64,000 nucleotides of DNA from an uncultured Candidatus Rokubacteria bacterium (GTDB lineage: Bacteria > Methylomirabilota > Methylomirabilia > Rokubacteriales > DASRDR01): positions 128,001 through 192,000 of the forward strand of contig CAVPSB010000025.1 of the NCBI GenBank assembly GCA_963708025.1, in the 5' to 3' direction. Position 1 is the first letter of the stretch. Each line of letters starts with the position of its first letter. Shown here in pieces: positions 30,895-37,682 of this stretch. The notes below the pieces were generated by a model, which did no database searches, was not told the origin of the DNA, and saw only the letters and a list, made by a program, of their open reading frames with translations. The position numbers were made by a program, and so were the translations under genes.

Positions 30895-31647
30895 ATGTCC
30901 GGCCATTCGAAGTGGTCGCAGATCAAGCGGAAGAAGGCGAAGAACGACCAGCAGCGCGGTAAGCTGTTCTCGAAGCTGATTCGCGAGGTCACGACGGCGG
31001 CGCGGGTCGGCGGCGGGGATCCCAAGGGCAATGTGCGGCTCAAGGCCGCGATCGAGGAAGCCAAGGCCGTCAACATGCCGGCCGACACGCTGAAGCGCGC
31101 GGTCCAGAAGGGGACGGGCGAGCTCCCCGGGGAGACCTACGAGGAAGTGACCTACGAGGGCTACGGGCCGGCCGGCGTGGCGATGATGGTGAAGGTGCTG
31201 ACCGACAACAAGAACCGCACGGCGCCGGAGATCCGCCACGGCTTCACCAAGTTCGGCGGGAACCTGGGAGAGGTCGGCTCGGTCGGCTGGATGTTCGAGC
31301 GCAAGGGCCTGATCCTCGTGGAGGCGAGCCGGGTGGGCGAGGACGACCTCTTCACCCTCGCGCTCGAGGGCGGCGCCACCGACATGCGCCGGGCCGACAA
31401 CCTCTTCGAGATCTCGACCGAGCCGGCCCAGCTCGAGAGCGTGCGCCGGGCGCTGGAGGAGAAGGGGGTTCCGATCCAGTCGGCCGAGGTGACCTACGTG
31501 CCGCAGTCGACGATCCGGCTGGATGGCAAGGAAGCCCAGCAGGTGCTCCGCCTGGTCGAGGGGCTCGAAGAGCTGGACGACGTGCAGAAGGTGTACGCGA
31601 ACTTCGACATCCCGGACGAGGTGCTGGAGACGCTGGGCGCGGCGTGA
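30895..31647 (+). CDS. yebC: YebC/PmpR family protein
   Basis: MSGHSKWSQIKRKK, YEGYGPAG, TDNKNRT, LEELDDVQ.VY.N. Confidence 0.96.
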   Translation: MSGHSKWSQIKRKKAKNDQQRGKLFSKLIREVTTAARVGGGDPKGNVRLKAAIEEAKAVNMPADTLKRAVQKGTGELPGETYEEVTYEGYGPAGVAMMVKVLTDNKNRTAPEIRHGFTKFGGNLGEVGSVGWMFERKGLILVEASRVGEDDLFTLALEGGATDMRRADNLFEISTEPAQLESVRRALEEKGVPIQSAEVTYVPQSTIRLDGKEAQQVLRLVEGLEELDDVQKVYANFDIPDEVLETLGAA

Positions 31648-31679
31648 GCAGTTCTCGATCGGGGGAGGGGGGCCGGGGC

Positions 31680-31812
31680 TGAGAGCGTGTGAAGGAATGG
31701 GACCTCCGACTCCCCCCTCCCCCCGGCCAAAGGCCGAAGGCCGTCCACCGGTGGGGGAGGGGGGCCAAAGGCCGAAGGCCTTCGACGGATCGGGTGGGCG
31801 GGAGGTCCCGAA
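31680..31812 (+). repeat. family B palindromic repeat ending in GGGAGGTCCCGAA
   Basis: TGAGAGCGTGTGAA...GGGACCTCC...C-rich/G-rich arms...GGGAGGTCCCGAA; copies precede ruvB, DUF2905, csaA and queA. Confidence 0.85.
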
Positions 31813-32301
31813 CTGAGGGCGGCCGGCTTCGATCCCGGGCTGGCGGAAACGGGGTTCGCGGTGCTGGCGGGGGGCCGCGGGGGCCCGGCCGTCCTCGGGA
31901 CCGGCGTCCTCCGGACTCACGCCGCCGACCCGCTCGATCTTCGGCTCGAGCAGCTCTTCGAGGGCATCCACGGGGTCCTCGCCGCCTTCGTGCCGGATTT
32001 CCTGGTCGTCGAGGACGTCTTCAGCGCCCCCCGGGTGCCGCGCACGGCCATCCTGATGGGGCACGCGCGCGCGGTCATCTGTCTGGCCGGCCGCCAGCGG
32101 AAGCTGGCGCTCCTCAGCGTCACCCCGGCCGAGGTCAAGCGGGCGGTGACGGCGTCGGGGGCGGCGTCGAAGGACCAGGTCGCGCGGGCGATGCAGGCGC
32201 TTCTGCGGCTCCCGGTCGCGCCGCGCCCGAGCCACGTGGCGGACGCCCTGGCGCTCGCCTTCACGGGGCTCTCGCGCGCCCGCGGCCTGGGCCGGCGATG
32301 A
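31813..32301 (+). CDS. ruvC: crossover junction endodeoxyribonuclease RuvC (apparent CTG start)
   Basis: (L)RAAGFDPGL..TGF, VEDVF, MGHAR, EVKRAVT.SG.ASKDQV, ADALALA; the ORF-track start (31861) omits the catalytic Asp. Confidence 0.9.
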   Translation: MRAAGFDPGLAETGFAVLAGGRGGPAVLGTGVLRTHAADPLDLRLEQLFEGIHGVLAAFVPDFLVVEDVFSAPRVPRTAILMGHARAVICLAGRQRKLALLSVTPAEVKRAVTASGAASKDQVARAMQALLRLPVAPRPSHVADALALAFTGLSRARGLGRR

Positions 32302-32945
32302 TCGCGTCCCTGCGCGGGCGCCTGCGCCGGCGCCTGGAGGATCGCGTCGTCGTCGAGTCGGGAGGGGTGGGGTACGAGGTGGTGCTGCCGCCCGTGGTGT
32401 CGAAGGGCCTGGCCGACGCGGTGGTGGGGGACGGGGAGGAGGCCACCCTGCTGGCCCTCGTCATCTACTACCACGCGACCCGAGACCAGCCGCGGCCGGT
32501 GCTCATCGGGTTCACCGGGGAGCTGGAGCGGGAGTTCTTCGAGCGGTTGATCACGGTGAAGGACGTGGGACCGCTGGTGGCGGCGCGGGCGCTCGTCGCG
32601 CCGGTGCCCGACATCGCCGACGCCATCGTGCGGAAGGACGAGCGGTTCCTGCGCCGGCTGCCGGGGATCGGGCCCCAGAAGTGCCGGAACATCATCGCCC
32701 AGCTCGAGGGGAAAGTGGCCAAGTACGCGCTGATGCCGCAGCCGGAGGCGCCGCCGGCGCCGGTGACCGCGCCGATCGAGGACGAGGTCCGGACCGTGGT
32801 CCGGGAGGTCCTGGTGCGCCAGCTCGGCCTCCGGAGCGGCGAGGCCGAGCTGGCGATCCGCGAGGCCCTGGCCCGACGGCCGGACATCGACAGCCCGGAG
32901 GCGTTGTTCGAGGAGATCTACCGGGCCCGCCGAGGGACCCCGTGA
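32298..32945 (+). CDS. ruvA: Holliday junction branch migration protein RuvA
   Basis: MIASLRG, GGVGYEV, LIGF....REFFE.LITV..VGP, LPGIG HhH; lies between ruvC and ruvB. Confidence 0.88.
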
Positions 32946-32954
32946 GTCGCCCCC

Positions 32955-33096
32955 GGACGTGCGAAGCGGCTGGCTCCTTCGGCCGTCTCTCCGACCCCCC
33001 CCTCCCCCCGGCCAAAGGCCGAAGGCCGTCCACCGGTGGGGGAGGCGGGTTGGGGGGGTAGGTGGGAGGTCACGAAGTGGGCGGGAGGTCCCGAAA
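32955..33096 (+). repeat. family B palindromic repeat
   Basis: C-rich/G-rich arms, GGCCGAAGGCC module, duplicated GGGAGGTC(A/C)CGAA end. Confidence 0.8.
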
Positions 33097-34122
33097 ATCA
33101 GCCAGGAAGAGCCCTCGCTGCTGAGCCGGCTCCCGCTGGCCGACGAGGTCCAGTTCGAGCGGGCCCTCCGGCCCCAGCGGCTCGACGAGTACATCGGCCA
33201 GCGGGACGCGGTGGAGAGCCTCCGGGTGTCGGTCGAGGCGGCCCGGCAGCGGGGCGAGAGCCTGGACCACGTCCTGCTCTACGGGCCGCCGGGCCTGGGG
33301 AAGACCACCCTCGCCTACATCCTCTCCCACGAGATGGGGAGCGAGATCAAGACCACCTCGGGGCCGGCCCTCGAGCGCGGCGACGACCTCATGGGGATCG
33401 TCACCAGCCTGGAGCCGGGTGACGTGCTCTTCATCGACGAGATCCACCGCCTCCCGCGGCCGGTCGAGGAGCTGCTCTACCCGGCGATGGAGGACTTCGA
33501 GGTCAACTTCGTGGTCGAGAAAGGGATGCACGCCCGCACCATGCGGATCCCGCTCAAGCCGTTCACGCTGGTCGGGGCCACGACGCGGCCGGGCATGCTC
33601 AGCTCCCCTCTCCGCGAGCGCTTCGGCATCTTCCATCACCTGGACTTCTACACCGACGAGGAGCTGGCCCGCATCGTCGTCCGCTCGGCCGGCATCCTTG
33701 CGGTCACGGTGGAAGGCGAGGGCGCGCTCGAGATCGCCCGGCGCGCCCGCGGCACGCCGCGCATCGCCAACCGTCTGCTGCGCCGGGTCCGCGACTTCGC
33801 CCAGGTCCGGGGCGACGGGCGCATCAGCCACGCAACTGCCGACGCCGCCCTGACCATGGAGGGGGTGGACGCGCGGGGGCTCGACCGGCTGGACCGCCGG
33901 TTCGTCCAGGCGATCATCGAGCACTACGGCGGGGGTCCGGTGGGGCTGGAGGCGATCGCCGCGACCATCAACGACGAGGCCGAGACCCTGGCCGAGATGG
34001 TGGAGCCGTATCTGCTCAAGATCGGCTTCGTGGTGCGCGGGCCGAGCGGCCGGAAGGCGACGCCGGCCGCGTACCAGCATCTCGGCTATCGCACCGAGGG
34101 TCCGTTACAGCTGTCCTTGTGA
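33097..34122 (+). CDS. ruvB: Holliday junction DNA helicase RuvB (apparent ATC start)
   Basis: [60 protein letters not shown]. Confidence 0.95.
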
Positions 34123-34561
34123 GCACGTGTGAATATCGGCGAGCCTCCGGCTCCCCCCCTCCGGCCACAGGCCGAAGGCCGTCGCGCGGCCGGGGAGGGG
34201 GGCCAAAGGCCGAAGGCCGTCCAAGGATCAGGTGGGCGGGAGGTCCCGAAAGGTGGATTCATGACGGAGATGGGAAAGCTGCTCAGCTGTCGCTGTGAGC
34301 ACGTGTGAGGTATCGGTGAGCCTCCGGCTCCCCCTCCCCCCCGGTGGGTGGGGGAGGGGGGCTGGGGGGGTGGGCGGGAGGTCCCGAAAGGTGGATTCAT
34401 GACGGAGATGGGAAAGCTGCTCAGCTGTCGCTGTGAGCACGTGTGAGGTATCGGTGAGCCTCCGGCTCCCCCTCCCCCCCGGTGGGTGGGGGAGGGGGGC
34501 TGGGGGGGTGGGCGGGAGGTCCCGAAAGGTGGATTCATGACGGAGATGGGAAAGCTGCTCA
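34120..34561 (+). repeat. three family B copies within a 138-bp tandem amplification
   Basis: ATGACGGAGATGGGAAAGCTGCTCA at 34261, 34399 and 34537 (period 138). Confidence 0.9.
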
Positions 34562-34764
34562 TCGGGGCCGGCGTGGCGCTGATCGTCATCGGCGGCCTGC
34601 TGGTGCTGTCGGGGTCCATGGGCGACAAGGTGCCGGCGGTCGGCCGGTTGCCGGGCGACATCCACATCCAGCGCGGCAACTGGTCCTTCTACTTCCCGCT
34701 GACGACCTCGATCCTGGTCAGCGTGATCTTGACGCTGCTGTTCACCCTCTGGTCCCGCCGATGA
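34537..34764 (+). CDS. DUF2905 family membrane protein
   Basis: MGKLLI..G, GRLPGDIHI.RGNW.FYFPLTTSILVS. Confidence 0.9.
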   Translation: MTEMGKLLIGAGVALIVIGGLLVLSGSMGDKVPAVGRLPGDIHIQRGNWSFYFPLTTSILVSVILTLLFTLWSRR

Positions 34765-35926
34765 GGGCCCGGGCCCGGACCGTTGCACGGCCCTTGCCGC
34801 GCTCGCGCTGCTCGTCGGGCTCGGCGTCGCCCCGGCTCGCGCGGCGGAGCCGATCCGCGTCCAGGTGGGGGACGGGCTCCGGGCCGTGGAAGTGGCCGCC
34901 CCGGATCTGGTCACCGTGCTCGACGCCGGGACCCGGCGCGCGCTCTTCGGCATCCCCGGCGGGCGCCCGATCCGCCTGGTGGCGACGGCCGGCGGCGGCA
35001 TGGAAGCGACGTGGGGGGCGGGGGGCGCCGTCGAGCGGCGGCGTCTGGTCATGCCCGGGGTCCGGCTCGAGAGCCGGCGCGTCGGGCTCCGTGTGGGGGC
35101 CCGCGACTTCGGCGGGGCCCTCGAGGTCTGGCGGAACGACGGGCTCCTGCTCGTCAACGAGCTGCCTCTCGAGGAGTACATCGCCGGGACGGTGCGGGCC
35201 GAGGCGCCGGAGCGCTGGCCCGCCGAGTCACTGCGGGCGCTGGCGGTCGTCGCCCGGACCTTCGCCGTGTTCCATCAGCAGAAGAACGCCGGCCGGCCGT
35301 ACCACCTGGTGGCCGGGAACCAGCATCAGAACTTCGCGGGGCGGATCGCGGAGGACTCGCCGGCCTGGGACGCCGTGCGAGCGACGGCGGGCCAGGTCCT
35401 GACCTGGCAGGGCGCCATCTTCCCCGCCTTCTACCACTCGGACTCCGGCGGCTACACCGAGCCGCCCCAGTCGATCTTCTCGGGAGGGGGCATCCCGCCG
35501 CTGCCGGGGGTCCGCGACGGGTTCTCGACCGATTCGCCGAACTACTCCTGGGCCGCGACGCTGCCGCTCTCCGTCGTCGCCGACCGCCTGCGCCAGGGCG
35601 GCGTCGAGGTCGGGGACGTCCGCGGGTTCACCGTCCTCGAGCGGAGCGTGTCGTTGCGGGTCCTGCGCCTGGCGGTGGAGCACACGCGGGGGACGGCGAC
35701 GCTCAAGGGGACCGACTTCCGGCGCCTGGTCGGGTACGATGTGCTGAAGAGCACGCTGTTCGTCGCCATGGTGGTGGACGGCGCGGCTCGGTTCGAGGGG
35801 CGGGGGTGGGGGCACGGCGCCGGGCTGTCCCAGTTCGGGGCCAAGGGGATGGCCGAGCGGGGCTATGCCTACCCGCAGATCCTGGCCCACTTCTACCCGG
35901 GCACCGCGTTGAGCACGCTGAAGTGA
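34761..35926 (+). CDS. SpoIID/LytB domain protein (apparent frameshift near 34775)
   Basis: VNELPLEEYIAG, LRALAVVARTFA, FYHSDSGG.TE, GRGWGHGAGLSQFGA, IL.HFYPG. Confidence 0.88.
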
Positions 35927-36006
35927 ATGACTTGTCGCCTCCGACTCCCCCCTCCCCCCCGGTGGGTGGGGGAGGGGGGTTGGGGGGGTAGGCGGGAGGT
36001 TCCGAT
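35923..36006 (+). repeat. family B palindromic repeat
   Basis: CCTCCGACTCCCCCCTCCCCCCCGGTGGGTGGGGGAGGGGGG...GCGGGAGGTTCCGAT. Confidence 0.85.
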
Positions 36007-36336
36007 CTGATCGCCTGGGAGGACTTCGAGAAGGTGGACATGCGCGTCGGTGTCGTCGTCCGGGCCGAGCCGTTCCCGGAGGCGCGGAAGCCGGCCTACA
36101 AGCTCTGGATCGACTTCGGCCCCCTCGGCCAGAAGCAGTCGAGCGCGCAGATCACCGACCACTACCGGGCGGAGGATCTCGTCGGCCGCCCGGTGGTGTG
36201 CGTGCTGAACTTCGCGCCCAAGCGGATCGGCCCCTTCGTATCCGAGGTGCTCGTGCTCGGCGCCTACACGAACGGCCGGGAGGTGATCCTGCTGCGCCCG
36301 GACCAGGACGTGGAGCGGGGGAGCCGGATTGGCTGA
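36007..36336 (+). CDS. csaA: tRNA-binding/export chaperone CsaA (apparent CTG start)
   Basis: (L)IAWEDFEKVDMRVG, FPEARKPAYKL.IDFG, SSAQIT, NF.PKRIG.F.SEVLVLG. Confidence 0.9.
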   Translation: MIAWEDFEKVDMRVGVVVRAEPFPEARKPAYKLWIDFGPLGQKQSSAQITDHYRAEDLVGRPVVCVLNFAPKRIGPFVSEVLVLGAYTNGREVILLRPDQDVERGSRIG

Positions 36337-36339
36337 GAT

Positions 36340-36638
36340 CCACTTCGGGGGGGTCTCGGAAGACCCCCCCGATTCCCCCCGCTCGGAGGCCGCGACTGTT
36401 GGACGGCCTTCGGCCTTTGGGCCGCGGCTCGAAGTGGAACGCCAGGGCCGTGTGGCCAGAGCCAAAGGGCGAGAGACGCCGTTGGGTGGGGAGTGGAAGC
36501 CGTCCGAGATGGGTTCACGGACTCTGAGAGCGTGTGAAGGATCCCGGTCCTCCGACTCCCCCCTCCCCTCCGGTGGGTGGGGGAGGGGGGCCAAAGGCCG
36601 AAGGCCGTCGAAGGATCGGGTGGGCGGGAGGTCCCGAA
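36340..36638 (+). repeat. composite repeat region: GC hairpin, GGCCTTCGGCC module and family B copy (36525-36638)
   Basis: CGGGGGGGTCT..AGACCCCCCCG hairpin; TGAGAGCGTGTGAAGG...GGGAGGTCCCGAA. Confidence 0.8.
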
Positions 36639-37682
36639 CTGGCGCTCACGCTGGACCGGTTCGACTACGAGCTGCCGGCCGACCGGATCGCTCAGGAGCC
36701 GGCGGAGCCGCGGGACAGCTCCCGGCTCCTGGTCCTCGATCGGCGGGCCGGTGCGCTCCGCGACGCGCACGTCCGCGACCTCGGCGCCCTCCTCCGTCCC
36801 GACGACTGCCTCGTGCTCAACGACACCCGGGTGGTGCCGGCGCGGCTCCTCGGGTGGATCGAGGGATCGGGGCGGGAGGCCGAGCTGCTGCTCGTGCGGG
36901 AGCTGGACGGGGGCGAGTGGGAAGCCCTGGTGCGACCGGCCCGCCACTGCCCGGTGGGCACCGTCCTCGTCGTCGCCGACGGCGCCGCCCGCGCGGTCGT
37001 GCTCGGCCTCGGCCCCCTCGGGCAGCGGCGCGTCCGGCTGGAGACCTCCGGCGGGGTGCCCGACCTCCTGGCCCGACACGGCCTGCCCCCGCTCCCGCCC
37101 TACATCCGCCGCTACCGGAAGCCGGGCGGCGAGGACTGGGCCCGCTACCAGACCGTCTACGCCGAGCGGGACGGGGCAGTGGCCGCGCCGACGGCCGGGT
37201 TGCACTTCACCCCCGAGCTACTGGCGACCCTGGCCGGCGGGGGCGTCGAGCTCCGCCGGGTGACGCTCCACGTCGGCCCGGGCACCTTCCGCCCGGTCCG
37301 CGTCGCGCGGCTGAGCGAGCACCGGATGGAGGCGGAATCCTACGTGGTGCCGGCGTCGACCGCCGACGCGGTGGCCCGGGCCCGGGCCGAGGGCCGCCGC
37401 GTCGTCGCCGTGGGGACCACGACGGTGCGCGCGCTGGAGACCGCGGCCGGCCCCGACGGGACGGTGGCGGCGGGCGCCGGCTGGACCGAGCTGACGATCC
37501 TGCCGGGTCACCGGTTCCGGGCGGTGGACGCCCTCCTCACCAACTTCCACCTCCCGCGCTCCTCGCTGCTCCTGCTCGTCTCGGCGCTGGCCGGGCGCGA
37601 GCGGATCCTCGCCGCCTACCACCACGCCATCGATTCCGGCTACCGGTTCTACTCGTACGGCGACGCCATGCTGATCCTCTGA
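36639..37682 (+). CDS. queA: S-adenosylmethionine:tRNA ribosyltransferase-isomerase (CTG 36639, or repeat-internal GTG 36534)
   Basis: FDYELP..RIAQ.P, NDTRVVPARL, PLPPYI, YQTVYA, AAPTAGLHF, TNFHLP.SSL, YRFYSYGDAM. Confidence 0.95.
   Translation: MALTLDRFDYELPADRIAQEPAEPRDSSRLLVLDRRAGALRDAHVRDLGALLRPDDCLVLNDTRVVPARLLGWIEGSGREAELLLVRELDGGEWEALVRPARHCPVGTVLVVADGAARAVVLGLGPLGQRRVRLETSGGVPDLLARHGLPPLPPYIRRYRKPGGEDWARYQTVYAERDGAVAAPTAGLHFTPELLATLAGGGVELRRVTLHVGPGTFRPVRVARLSEHRMEAESYVVPASTADAVARARAEGRRVVAVGTTTVRALETAAGPDGTVAAGAGWTELTILPGHRFRAVDALLTNFHLPRSSLLLLVSALAGRERILAAYHHAIDSGYRFYSYGDAMLIL

Follow-up and report, generated by a model that had tools for sequence, protein, structure and literature searches.

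A mobile repeat that inserts at TGA and places CTG codons behind its own Shine–Dalgarno sequence in a soil Rokubacteria genome

How is a gene translated when no canonical start codon stands where homology places one, and a repeat stands in front of it? The question is raised by a locus on contig CAVPSB010000025.1 of an uncultured Candidatus Rokubacteria bacterium, within a stretch of 64 000 nucleotides (the window, to which all coordinates without a contig label refer). The gene order in this region is yebC, ruvC, ruvA, ruvB, a DUF2905 gene, a SpoIID/LytB-domain gene (spoIID), csaA and queA. A short repeat, here called family B, precedes five of these genes (ruvC, ruvB, DUF2905, csaA and queA), and before all five we find the sequence GGGAGGT(C/T)CCGA, as a first-pass annotation had reported. 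At the expected first codon there is a CTG in ruvC, csaA and queA, 6 nt behind GGAGGT, and an ATC in ruvB, 7 nt behind it. The positions of these codons, their Shine–Dalgarno (SD) spacings, the in-frame stops and the in-frame GTGs were all verified on the sequence. The gene identities and N-terminal registers agree with NCBIfam matches: RuvC residues 4–155 match profile positions 4–154 of 161, RuvB residues 17–332 positions 12–327 of 330, CsaA residues 2–108 positions 4–111 of 112 and QueA residues 4–347 positions 2–343 of 346. The source genome (G000) is a metagenome-assembled genome (MAG) of soil Rokubacteria with a size of 8.17 Mb in 49 contigs, 71% G+C, a completeness of 99.7% and a contamination estimate of 8.2%; its nearest relatives are MAGs labelled Candidatus Rokubacteria or Methylomirabilota.

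We compared positions 31500–36800 of the window with contigs from four soil-metagenome runs (X1, X2, X6 and X7, from four studies). The region occurs in roughly 15 studies in all, while the RNA runs X18–X20 contain less than 0.1 of the words sampled from it. Three runs contain the csaA junction without the repeat: 35923 is joined to 36008, 84 nt are skipped and a TGA fits both sides, giving GTGATCGCC. This empty allele reads ...CTGAA-G|TGA|TCGCCTGG, in which GTG ATC GCC TGG is the csaA start overlapping the spoIID stop, and relatives carry an ATGA overlap at the same junction (L112 and L122; two codons upstream in L102). The last base of the element in the window, C 36007, replaces the G of this ancestral GTG. 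A CTG of the csaA type is the terminal C of the element followed by the TG of a duplicated TGA, at a fixed distance of 7 nt from the GGAGG of the element. An in-frame TAG (35989–35991) stands 18 nt, or six codons, upstream of the csaA CTG and the next canonical start is a GTG at codon 10. As sequenced, the conserved N-termini of both CsaA and RuvC need the CTG, as had been proposed, and neither gene has a canonical start upstream in frame.

Empty alleles were also found at queA, DUF2905 and ruvC. The ancestral queA start is TTG 36329, which overlaps the end of csaA and is now cut off from the gene body by a 311-nt insertion; relatives share a TTG GCT start overlapping the csaA stop (L129 by eye). 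In two runs 36337 is joined to 36649 with 311 nt skipped (the X1 contig has seven other letters between them), and the empty allele reads in frame TTG GCT GAG GCC CCC GCG CTG GAC. The filled queA junction occurs elsewhere as well, since contigs of X1 and X2 begin in the element at 36612 and enter queA with one and three differences, respectively. At DUF2905, 34123 is joined to 34529 with 405 nt skipped in three runs, the X6 contig having ten other letters between. At ruvC, one contig in each of the four runs joins 31678 to 31813, with 134 nt skipped and CTGAG fitting both sides; this allele retains a 31-nt spacer and reads GGGG-CTGAG-GGCGGCC. No empty allele of ruvB was seen in the contigs of the four runs. 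An X6 contig (31813–33011) and an X7 contig (33042–33228) cover the two flanks of the ruvB element, which must therefore be present there too. The genome has GTGAG at the ruvA stop and ...GAAAATC-AGC CAG at ruvB, where the right end is of another subtype and there is no clean TGA duplication. At the aligned place relatives have ATG or GTG followed by AGC, many of them GTG AGC, and L030 and L035 show an acGTGAGC overlap between ruvA and ruvB; the ancestor was likely a GTGA overlap here too.

These alleles bear out the earlier suggestion that the repeat is a mobile insert. Family B is a recent, non-autonomous, strain-polymorphic mobile element of about 80–150 nt. The proposed alignment of the junctions to relatives and empty alleles gives GTGA or ATGA as the ancestral csaA start and TTG as that of queA. 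The claim that removing the inserts restores GTGA overlaps stands for spoIID–csaA (G|TGA|TCGCC, three runs) and falls for yebC–ruvC, where the empty allele already reads CTGAGG.

With mismatches allowed, the genome contains 601 right ends and 266 left ends, which give 191 paired copies of 50–227 nt with modes at 87–93, 108–115, 130–134 and 147–151 nt. TGA flanks the left side of 127 of these copies, the right side of 94 and both sides of 74. In the copies with TGA on both sides the base before the left TGA is C in 53, G in 15, A in five and T in one, and the base after the right TGA is G in 51, C in 13, A in seven and T in three, which gives C|TGA|G as the target. Copies with G-TGA or A-TGA on the left nonetheless have C-TGA on the right, and therefore the C belongs to the element, whose right terminus is GGGAGGTCCCGAA-C. 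The letters shared by both sides of the empty alleles, three at csaA and five at ruvC, represent the target-site duplication. Family B integrates at TGA, preferably at C|TGA|G, and duplicates 3 bp.

In 78 of 127 copies a co-oriented gene has its stop codon at the left TGA. Since insertion at a TGA stop spares the upstream gene, and TGA is the main stop codon here, surviving copies lie mostly right behind co-oriented stops. On the other side, 150 of the 273 exact right ends have a co-oriented gene downstream, and 82 of these 150 have a start at the distance of a ribosome-binding site (RBS), namely 59 canonical starts (4–16 nt after GGGAGG) and 23 in-frame CTGs that are the only near start. The element had been thought to target stop/start overlaps. 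What it targets is TGA as such, within C|TGA|G: a start is hit in 23 of 150 cases, compared with 647 of 3617 TGA stops that overlap an ATG, GTG or TTG start (p = 0.46), so overlaps are neither preferred nor avoided, which argues for tolerance of such insertions.

In our view, the reading that probably accounts for these data is that of a mobile, TGA-targeting element whose terminal C rewrites starts to CTG with an imported SD. The element inserts at a TGA and duplicates it, leaving the stop of the upstream gene intact. If the TGA lies within an ATGA or GTGA start, the first base of that start remains with the upstream copy, and the downstream gene is left with the terminal C of the element plus TG, placed 7 nt behind its GGAGG. 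The downstream genes would still be initiated at CUG (AUC for ruvB) with the help of the strong imported SD. Expression would probably be much reduced, and the alleles would be tolerated hypomorphs rather than a regulatory device. That the element brings its own SD, as first suggested, agrees with the consensus SD that stands at a constant 7 nt from the replacement codon. Use of CUG or AUC for initiation is inferred from the sequence, and the likeliest output from these alleles is probably reduced but non-zero. CUG and AUC are among four near-cognate codons described as initiating in Escherichia coli in bioRxiv 10.1101/063800. Among 624 confident overlapping starts in the genome GGAGG is found upstream of 15% and a 4-mer of 24%; native overlapped genes depend less on an SD, and it is plausible that an insert which disrupts an overlap has to bring one.

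The wider collection of copies had been suggested as a check. The exact right end GGGAGGT[CT]CCGA occurs 273 times in the genome, and in 80 cases the following bases complete CTGA. For right ends followed by TGA (n = 122), the best downstream coding frame is the CTG frame in 58 cases, the other forward frames in 13 and 20 and the opposite strand in 31; the CTG frame is the coding frame for 58 of these 122 ends, compared with 67 of 479 other right ends (Fisher p = 4e-14). A list of CTG cases with at least 60 open codons holds 51 entries, and 27 of them have no in-frame canonical start before the upstream stop; in 17 a TAG stands six codons before the CTG. In many CTG cases a canonical start follows 1–8 codons on and the CTG is not needed (as in UbiD, in a glycosyltransferase and in a response regulator). 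By Pfam and NCBIfam registers, seven genes lose a conserved N-terminus without the CTG and have no canonical start upstream in frame (Table 1), and a mandelate-racemase-like gene is a probable eighth. The codon aligned to the CTG of the quinone oxidoreductase is ATG in 11 of 11 relatives, and for the hydantoinase (HyuA) the nearest relative, L253, reads ATG ATC GAG at the aligned codon. We also considered CTG starts that arise generally, without the element, and rejected them: 65 CTGA overlaps lacking a near canonical start look like ordinary spacers, with starts 6–25 codons on.

Table 1. Coordinates of the features in the window, followed by the further genes that lose a conserved N-terminus without the CTG (next canonical start relative to the CTG).
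Feature	Position	Strand	Next canonical start	Description
yebC	30895–31647			Gene upstream of ruvC
Family B copy at ruvC	31683–31813	+		Long type, 131 nt; TGA 31680–31682 left, TGA 31814–31816 right
ruvC	31813–32301	+	+16	162 codons if read from CTG 31813
ruvA	32298–32945			Stop 32943–32945
Family B copy at ruvB	32946–33096	+		Atypical left end, right end ...CCCGAAAATC; between ruvA stop and ruvB ATC; left boundary approximate
ruvB	33097–34122	+		341 codons from ATC 33097
Array of three family B copies	34124–34528	+		Last two are an exact 138-nt tandem duplication, repeating the first DUF2905 codons
DUF2905 gene	34537–34764	+		Canonical ATG 34537, 17 nt behind element GGGAGG; PF11146, E = 2e-24
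Family B copy at csaA	35927–36007	+		Short type, 81 nt; TGA 35924–35926 (spoIID stop) left, TGA 36008–36010 right
csaA	36007–36336	+	+9	109 codons from CTG 36007
Composite insertion	36338–36648	+		311 nt; family A G/C hairpin, reversed GGCC-module repeat and family B at ~36527–36639
queA	36639–37682	+		347 codons from CTG 36639
OppC-type permease (OppC_N)			+67	
ABC ATPase (ABC_tran)			+19	
Quinone oxidoreductase (ADH_N/QOR)			+14	
Hydantoinase/oxoprolinase (Hydant_A_N)			+28	
GAP1-N1 protein			+35	

The ruvC locus departs from the csaA pattern. The element ends in C 31813, with which the ruvC CTG begins; this CTG follows GGGAGGT(C/T)CCGA(A/T). An in-frame stop (TGA 31690–31692) lies 123 nt upstream of 31813, and there is no in-frame ATG, GTG or TTG between it and GTG 31861. 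The canonical open reading frame (ORF) from that GTG encodes 146 residues and loses the first 16, including the conserved FDPG. Across 19 loci of relatives the codon aligned to the CTG is GTG in two, TTG in two, CTG in three and CCN in 12. The three with CTG are L003, L005 and L017, of which L005 and L017 have an in-frame ATG 9–11 codons upstream; the 12 with CCN are genus-g5 loci, one of which (L011, by eye) has an in-frame ATG 11 codons upstream. In our genome ATC 31658 occupies the place of the relatives' ATG, and the first canonical start met upstream in that frame is ATG 31523. Provided that the other strains share 31640–31678, ruvC was without a nearby canonical start already before the insertion. 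We note that within 31640–31681 a GGAGG stands 10 nt ahead of CTG 31679.

Several observations weigh against the rewriting of starts by family B as we describe it. The ruvC CTG predates the insertion and was not made by the element. The contigs that span csaA (X2, X6 and X7) carry the empty allele, so that the csaA CTG may represent a minor allele with a mildly deleterious effect. Among right ends reading ATG, TTG or GTG, 20 of 36 are in frame with a gene, compared with 33 of 93 CTG ends (p = 0.047), which hints that CTG is selected against and is compatible with later repair of the start. An in-frame canonical start lies within the element in 24 of the 51 CTG cases. Of 74 copies, 26 have an entirely base-paired SD in the minimum free energy (MFE) fold, and the mean unpaired probability of the SD is 0.33. 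As to mobility, the outermost bases of the element (GAGCG... and ...CGAAC) are non-complementary and its termini appear not to be inverted repeats, and no transposase with family B ends was found in the assembly. CUG and AUC are given an efficiency of 1–2% of that of AUG in E. coli in bioRxiv 10.1101/063800.

Much of this would also be expected if the CTG and ATC alleles were barely translated, that is, if they were recent and slightly harmful insertions that knock down or knock out genes the cell can do without (such as ruvC, csaA and queA), carried along in a burst of the element, and the SD were merely the G-rich arm of a hairpin. The inserts are strain-polymorphic, with empty alleles in other samples, the right end is found in only one of 151 genomes of the order (our own), and the low near-cognate efficiency, the weak excess of in-frame genes behind ATG, TTG or GTG ends and the frequent base pairing of the SD all point the same way. 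We nevertheless regard this explanation as unlikely. All of the affected genes keep full-length, uninterrupted domains, and insertions at starts are no rarer than opportunity would predict (p = 0.46). At least eight genes of varied function are hit, including ABC ATPase and permease subunits within operons. A spacing of 7 nt is, moreover, in the usual working range of an SD.

The in-frame canonical starts invite a different explanation, in which a GTG or ATG, either within the element or upstream of it, provides an N-terminal extension which, where the frame is closed, is masked by homopolymer errors in the assembly. For ruvB the candidate starts are ATC 33097 and GTG 32959, the latter adding 46 residues read through the element, and queA has alternative in-frame GTGs in the element at 36534 and 36573. 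Each family B copy contains several C or G runs of 6–8, and the scatter of copy lengths over 87–93 nt fits such errors. Against this, 27 of the 51 cases are without an in-frame canonical start before the stop, and in 17 cases the TAG stands six codons ahead of the CTG; copy lengths favour no frame (88 nt, 18 copies; 89 nt, 20; 90 nt, 23); and the right end and the junctions recur in short-read contigs. Outside the repeats there are few indels between the assembly and the contigs of other runs (33461–33462, 34779–34792 and 36752; three more exist). The extensions would, furthermore, be G/P-rich peptides with no SD ahead of them. Extension from canonical starts is in our judgement improbable.

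Translational coupling was also considered. It had been suggested that short ORFs running through the hairpin couple translation, and in the ruvC copy ATG 31697 does open a frame that ends at TGA 31814–31816 and overlaps the CTG. A ribosome translating such an ORF from near the upstream stop to the TGA of CTGA could re-initiate at the overlapping CTG, much as described for mycobacterial interspersed repetitive units (MIRUs) in a J Bacteriol 2025 review (PMC12548453). The frame from the element ATG to the terminal TGA is open in only 18 of 54 copies in which the ATG is present between two flanking TGAs, which is the chance level (p = 1.0), a count that homopolymer errors could blur; another 20 copies with TGA on both sides do not have the ATG. 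The ATG directly adjoins AAGGA, leaving no usable SD spacing. An internal coupling ORF was rejected on the grounds that its frame is not conserved, and re-initiation of this kind is the least probable of the explanations considered here.

The pairing of the left arm with the SD, also proposed initially, is not supported as a regular feature. Such sequestration is predicted for the ruvC copy and the first DUF2905 copy, and it is not the MFE structure in the csaA, queA and ruvB copies. Over 74 copies, 34 have the left arm as the MFE partner of the SD and 31 have downstream sequence in that role. Occlusion of the SD is frequent, yet it does not amount to a conserved anti-SD device.

Returning to the preferred reading, that starts are rewritten to CTG behind an imported SD, we consider its significance to be first of all mechanical. 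The terminal C and the duplicated TGA offer a simple route by which starts are rewritten at many loci, with the RBS replaced by the same element. This accounts for the truncated or wrongly started calls of dozens of genes in MAGs of this kind, as with ruvC, which is called from GTG 31861. If CUG starts work, then dozens of genes in this Rokubacteria lineage would be expressed from SD-driven CUG starts, and the coexistence of filled and empty alleles in soils would amount to a natural experiment at the population level. Pairs of filled and empty alleles would allow near-cognate initiation, and the repair of CTG to TTG, ATG or GTG, to be measured. Near-cognate initiation and the limiting of polar operon damage by mobile DNA, an idea that so far rests mainly on MIRUs, would be open to direct study. 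More tentatively, and with rather less confidence than in the rewriting itself, the element may be adapted to operon life, homing to TGA stops with a portable RBS 7 nt from its end that would re-initiate the downstream cistron despite the CUG.

The consensus of family B consists of GAGCGTGTGAAGGAATGGGTCCTCCGRCTCCCCCC, a C/G hairpin with or without GGCCAAAGGCCGAAGGCC modules, and then GGGCGGGAGGTCCCGAAC. The short type, of about 90 nt, reads GAGCGTGTGAAGGAATGGGTCCTCCGRCTCCCCCC-T-CCCCCC-GGTGGGT-GGGGGAGGGGGG-YT-GGGGGGG-T-GGGCGGGAGGTCCCGAAC, and the long types contain 1–3 GGCCAAAGGCCGAAGGCC modules. The inverted arms, GGGTCCTCCG.../...GGGAGGTCCC, are subterminal, beginning 16 nt inside the left end and 4 nt inside the right end. 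An RNAalifold consensus of 85 short copies gives helix fragments only, because the homopolymer runs align badly; fold z-scores of single copies range from -0.45 to -2.2, which is uninformative in such G+C-rich sequence, and Rfam covariance models gave no matches at E ≤ 0.1 in 31000–37000.

The 17-mer GGGAGGTCCCGAACTGA, which is the right end plus TGA, occurs 66 times in the genome, compared with none for a backwards control. The 150 other genomes searched in the order gave no match, a result to be read as 'not found' rather than 'absent' as many MAGs are assembled from short reads and are interrupted at repeats. In a collection of 185,579 species there were 16 single chance matches, none within an element. 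Of 33 metagenome matches, four are clearly family B (L217, L224, L237 and L244), these being short-read contigs with the same right end and CTGA, and another (L236) ends at the contig edge. In L224 and L244 the left flank is G-TGA and the right flank is C-TGA.

The search for a mobilising enzyme was carried out on the same assembly. Paralogous empty sites were sought there as well and gave 45 spanning matches, all of them in tandem arrays or other repeats and none clean. Three left-to-right intervals of 0.5–6 kb exist, and the two that were inspected carry ordinary genes and no autonomous partner. None of the five DDE_Tnp_1 loci has element ends beside the transposase; one loose right end (≤3 mismatches) lies at the far end of L247, and the other four loci have none. 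PF13340 and PF13359 gave no matches in the genome. The Y1 transposase profile PF01797 likewise gave none there, while the control matched in six of 14 genomes, and no RAYT was found in this 99.7% complete genome.

Some side observations concern the repeats themselves. In the array at DUF2905, a 138-nt unit occurs three times over 34231–34644, with copies one and two identical and copy three 64% alike; it comprises a short family B copy, the first eight DUF2905 codons and a ruvB-tail-like GTGAGCACGTGTGA, and its duplication creates two extra 15-codon ORFs ahead of the real DUF2905. On another contig (C2:216027–216640) family B forms a tandem array of six 100-nt copies, all with the end ...CCCGA-ATGACGGGCAAGG, followed by a seventh copy in frame with an ATG-started gene. 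A second repeat, family A, is a G7/C7 hairpin (TTCGGGGGGGTCTCGGAAGACCCCCCCGA) that lies at 36338–36380, immediately 3' of the csaA stop, and at many other loci. Family A-like sequence stands behind many family B right ends (CTGAGATCTTCGGGGGG...) and also before some 30 copies with the right end ...CCCGAA(G/A)ATC-TCAG, i.e. beside a TGA of the opposite strand. The module GGCCAAAGGCCGAAGGCCGTC occurs nested in family B, alone and reversed (31725–31745, 31763–31783 and, reversed, 36399–36423), and a close variant is present upstream of csaA in the genus-g5 relative L115 (genome G010), which has no family B; the module may be an older, separate repeat.

Two further observations concern strain variation. 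The quinone-oxidoreductase gene pair is present twice in the genome (C13:386538–388587 and C40:11509–13596) with 99% protein identity, and a different family B copy lies between the pair at each location, giving a CTG start on C13 and an ATG on C40 (...GGGAGGCG-ATG-AAG); this may represent a duplication or two strains in one bin. At 34779–34792, in the 5' end of the SpoIID/LytB-domain gene, all four runs show short deletions relative to the window (3, 3 and 4–5 nt) that look in-frame and are probably strain differences in the signal region.

Among known systems, REP/REPIN–RAYT and elements derived from IS200/IS605 share with family B a position as extragenic palindromes behind stops, unequal subterminal hairpins and a sequence-specific target. 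They differ from it in that no Y1 (PF01797) or RAYT was found in the genome, and in that TGA stands on both sides of family B, although this can equally be read as an element that ends in its own CTGA. The combination of a C|TNA|G target with a 3-bp duplication is a signature of DDE transposases of the IS5/PIF-Harbinger type. According to PMC4482050, the NuwaII group (PHIS/IS5-type DDE transposons) has a C|TNA|G target and a 3-bp TNA duplication, to which the C|TGA|G target of family B, with its 3-bp duplication, C in 53 of 74 before it and G in 51 of 74 after it, corresponds. NuwaII is, however, eukaryotic and autonomous, whereas family B appears to be without terminal inverted repeats and no linked transposase was found.

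Correia, RUP, BOX and ERIC are names of bacterial MITEs (transposable elements of miniature size with inverted repeats). Family B resembles MITEs in its many dispersed, similar copies, which are small, non-coding, hairpin-forming and strain-polymorphic, and in having a short target duplication and no transposase of its own; it differs in that its outermost termini appear not to be inverted repeats and its target is a stop-codon trinucleotide. The terms 'stop codon', 'start codon', 'Shine-Dalgarno' and 'ribosome binding' do not occur in the text of a MITE review (PMC10969869). Literature searches by term, outside whose coverage most subscription journals lie, likewise returned no repeat described as supplying an SD or converting starts to CTG.

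The closest known analogue of family B is offered by the MIRUs (Supply et al., 1997), which, as PMC12548453 summarises them, insert at start codons and carry an internal ORF coupled at −4. As far as these descriptions go, both are short repeats at stop/start junctions in operons, co-oriented with the flanking genes; siting of this type is seen for family B in the 78 of 127 copies right behind a co-oriented stop and the 82 of 150 ends with a start at RBS distance. MIRUs are also thought there to spare downstream expression, and tandem duplication is common to both, family B showing it in the array at 34231–34644 and in the six 100-nt copies on C2. The ORF of a MIRU couples at a −4 overlap, while the internal ORF of family B is not frame-conserved (18 of 54). 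Family B also belongs to another phylum and is compared here by description, not by sequence. On that comparison it differs from the MIRUs in three ways: it targets TGA, it carries a consensus SD in place of a coupling ORF and it converts the start to CTG.

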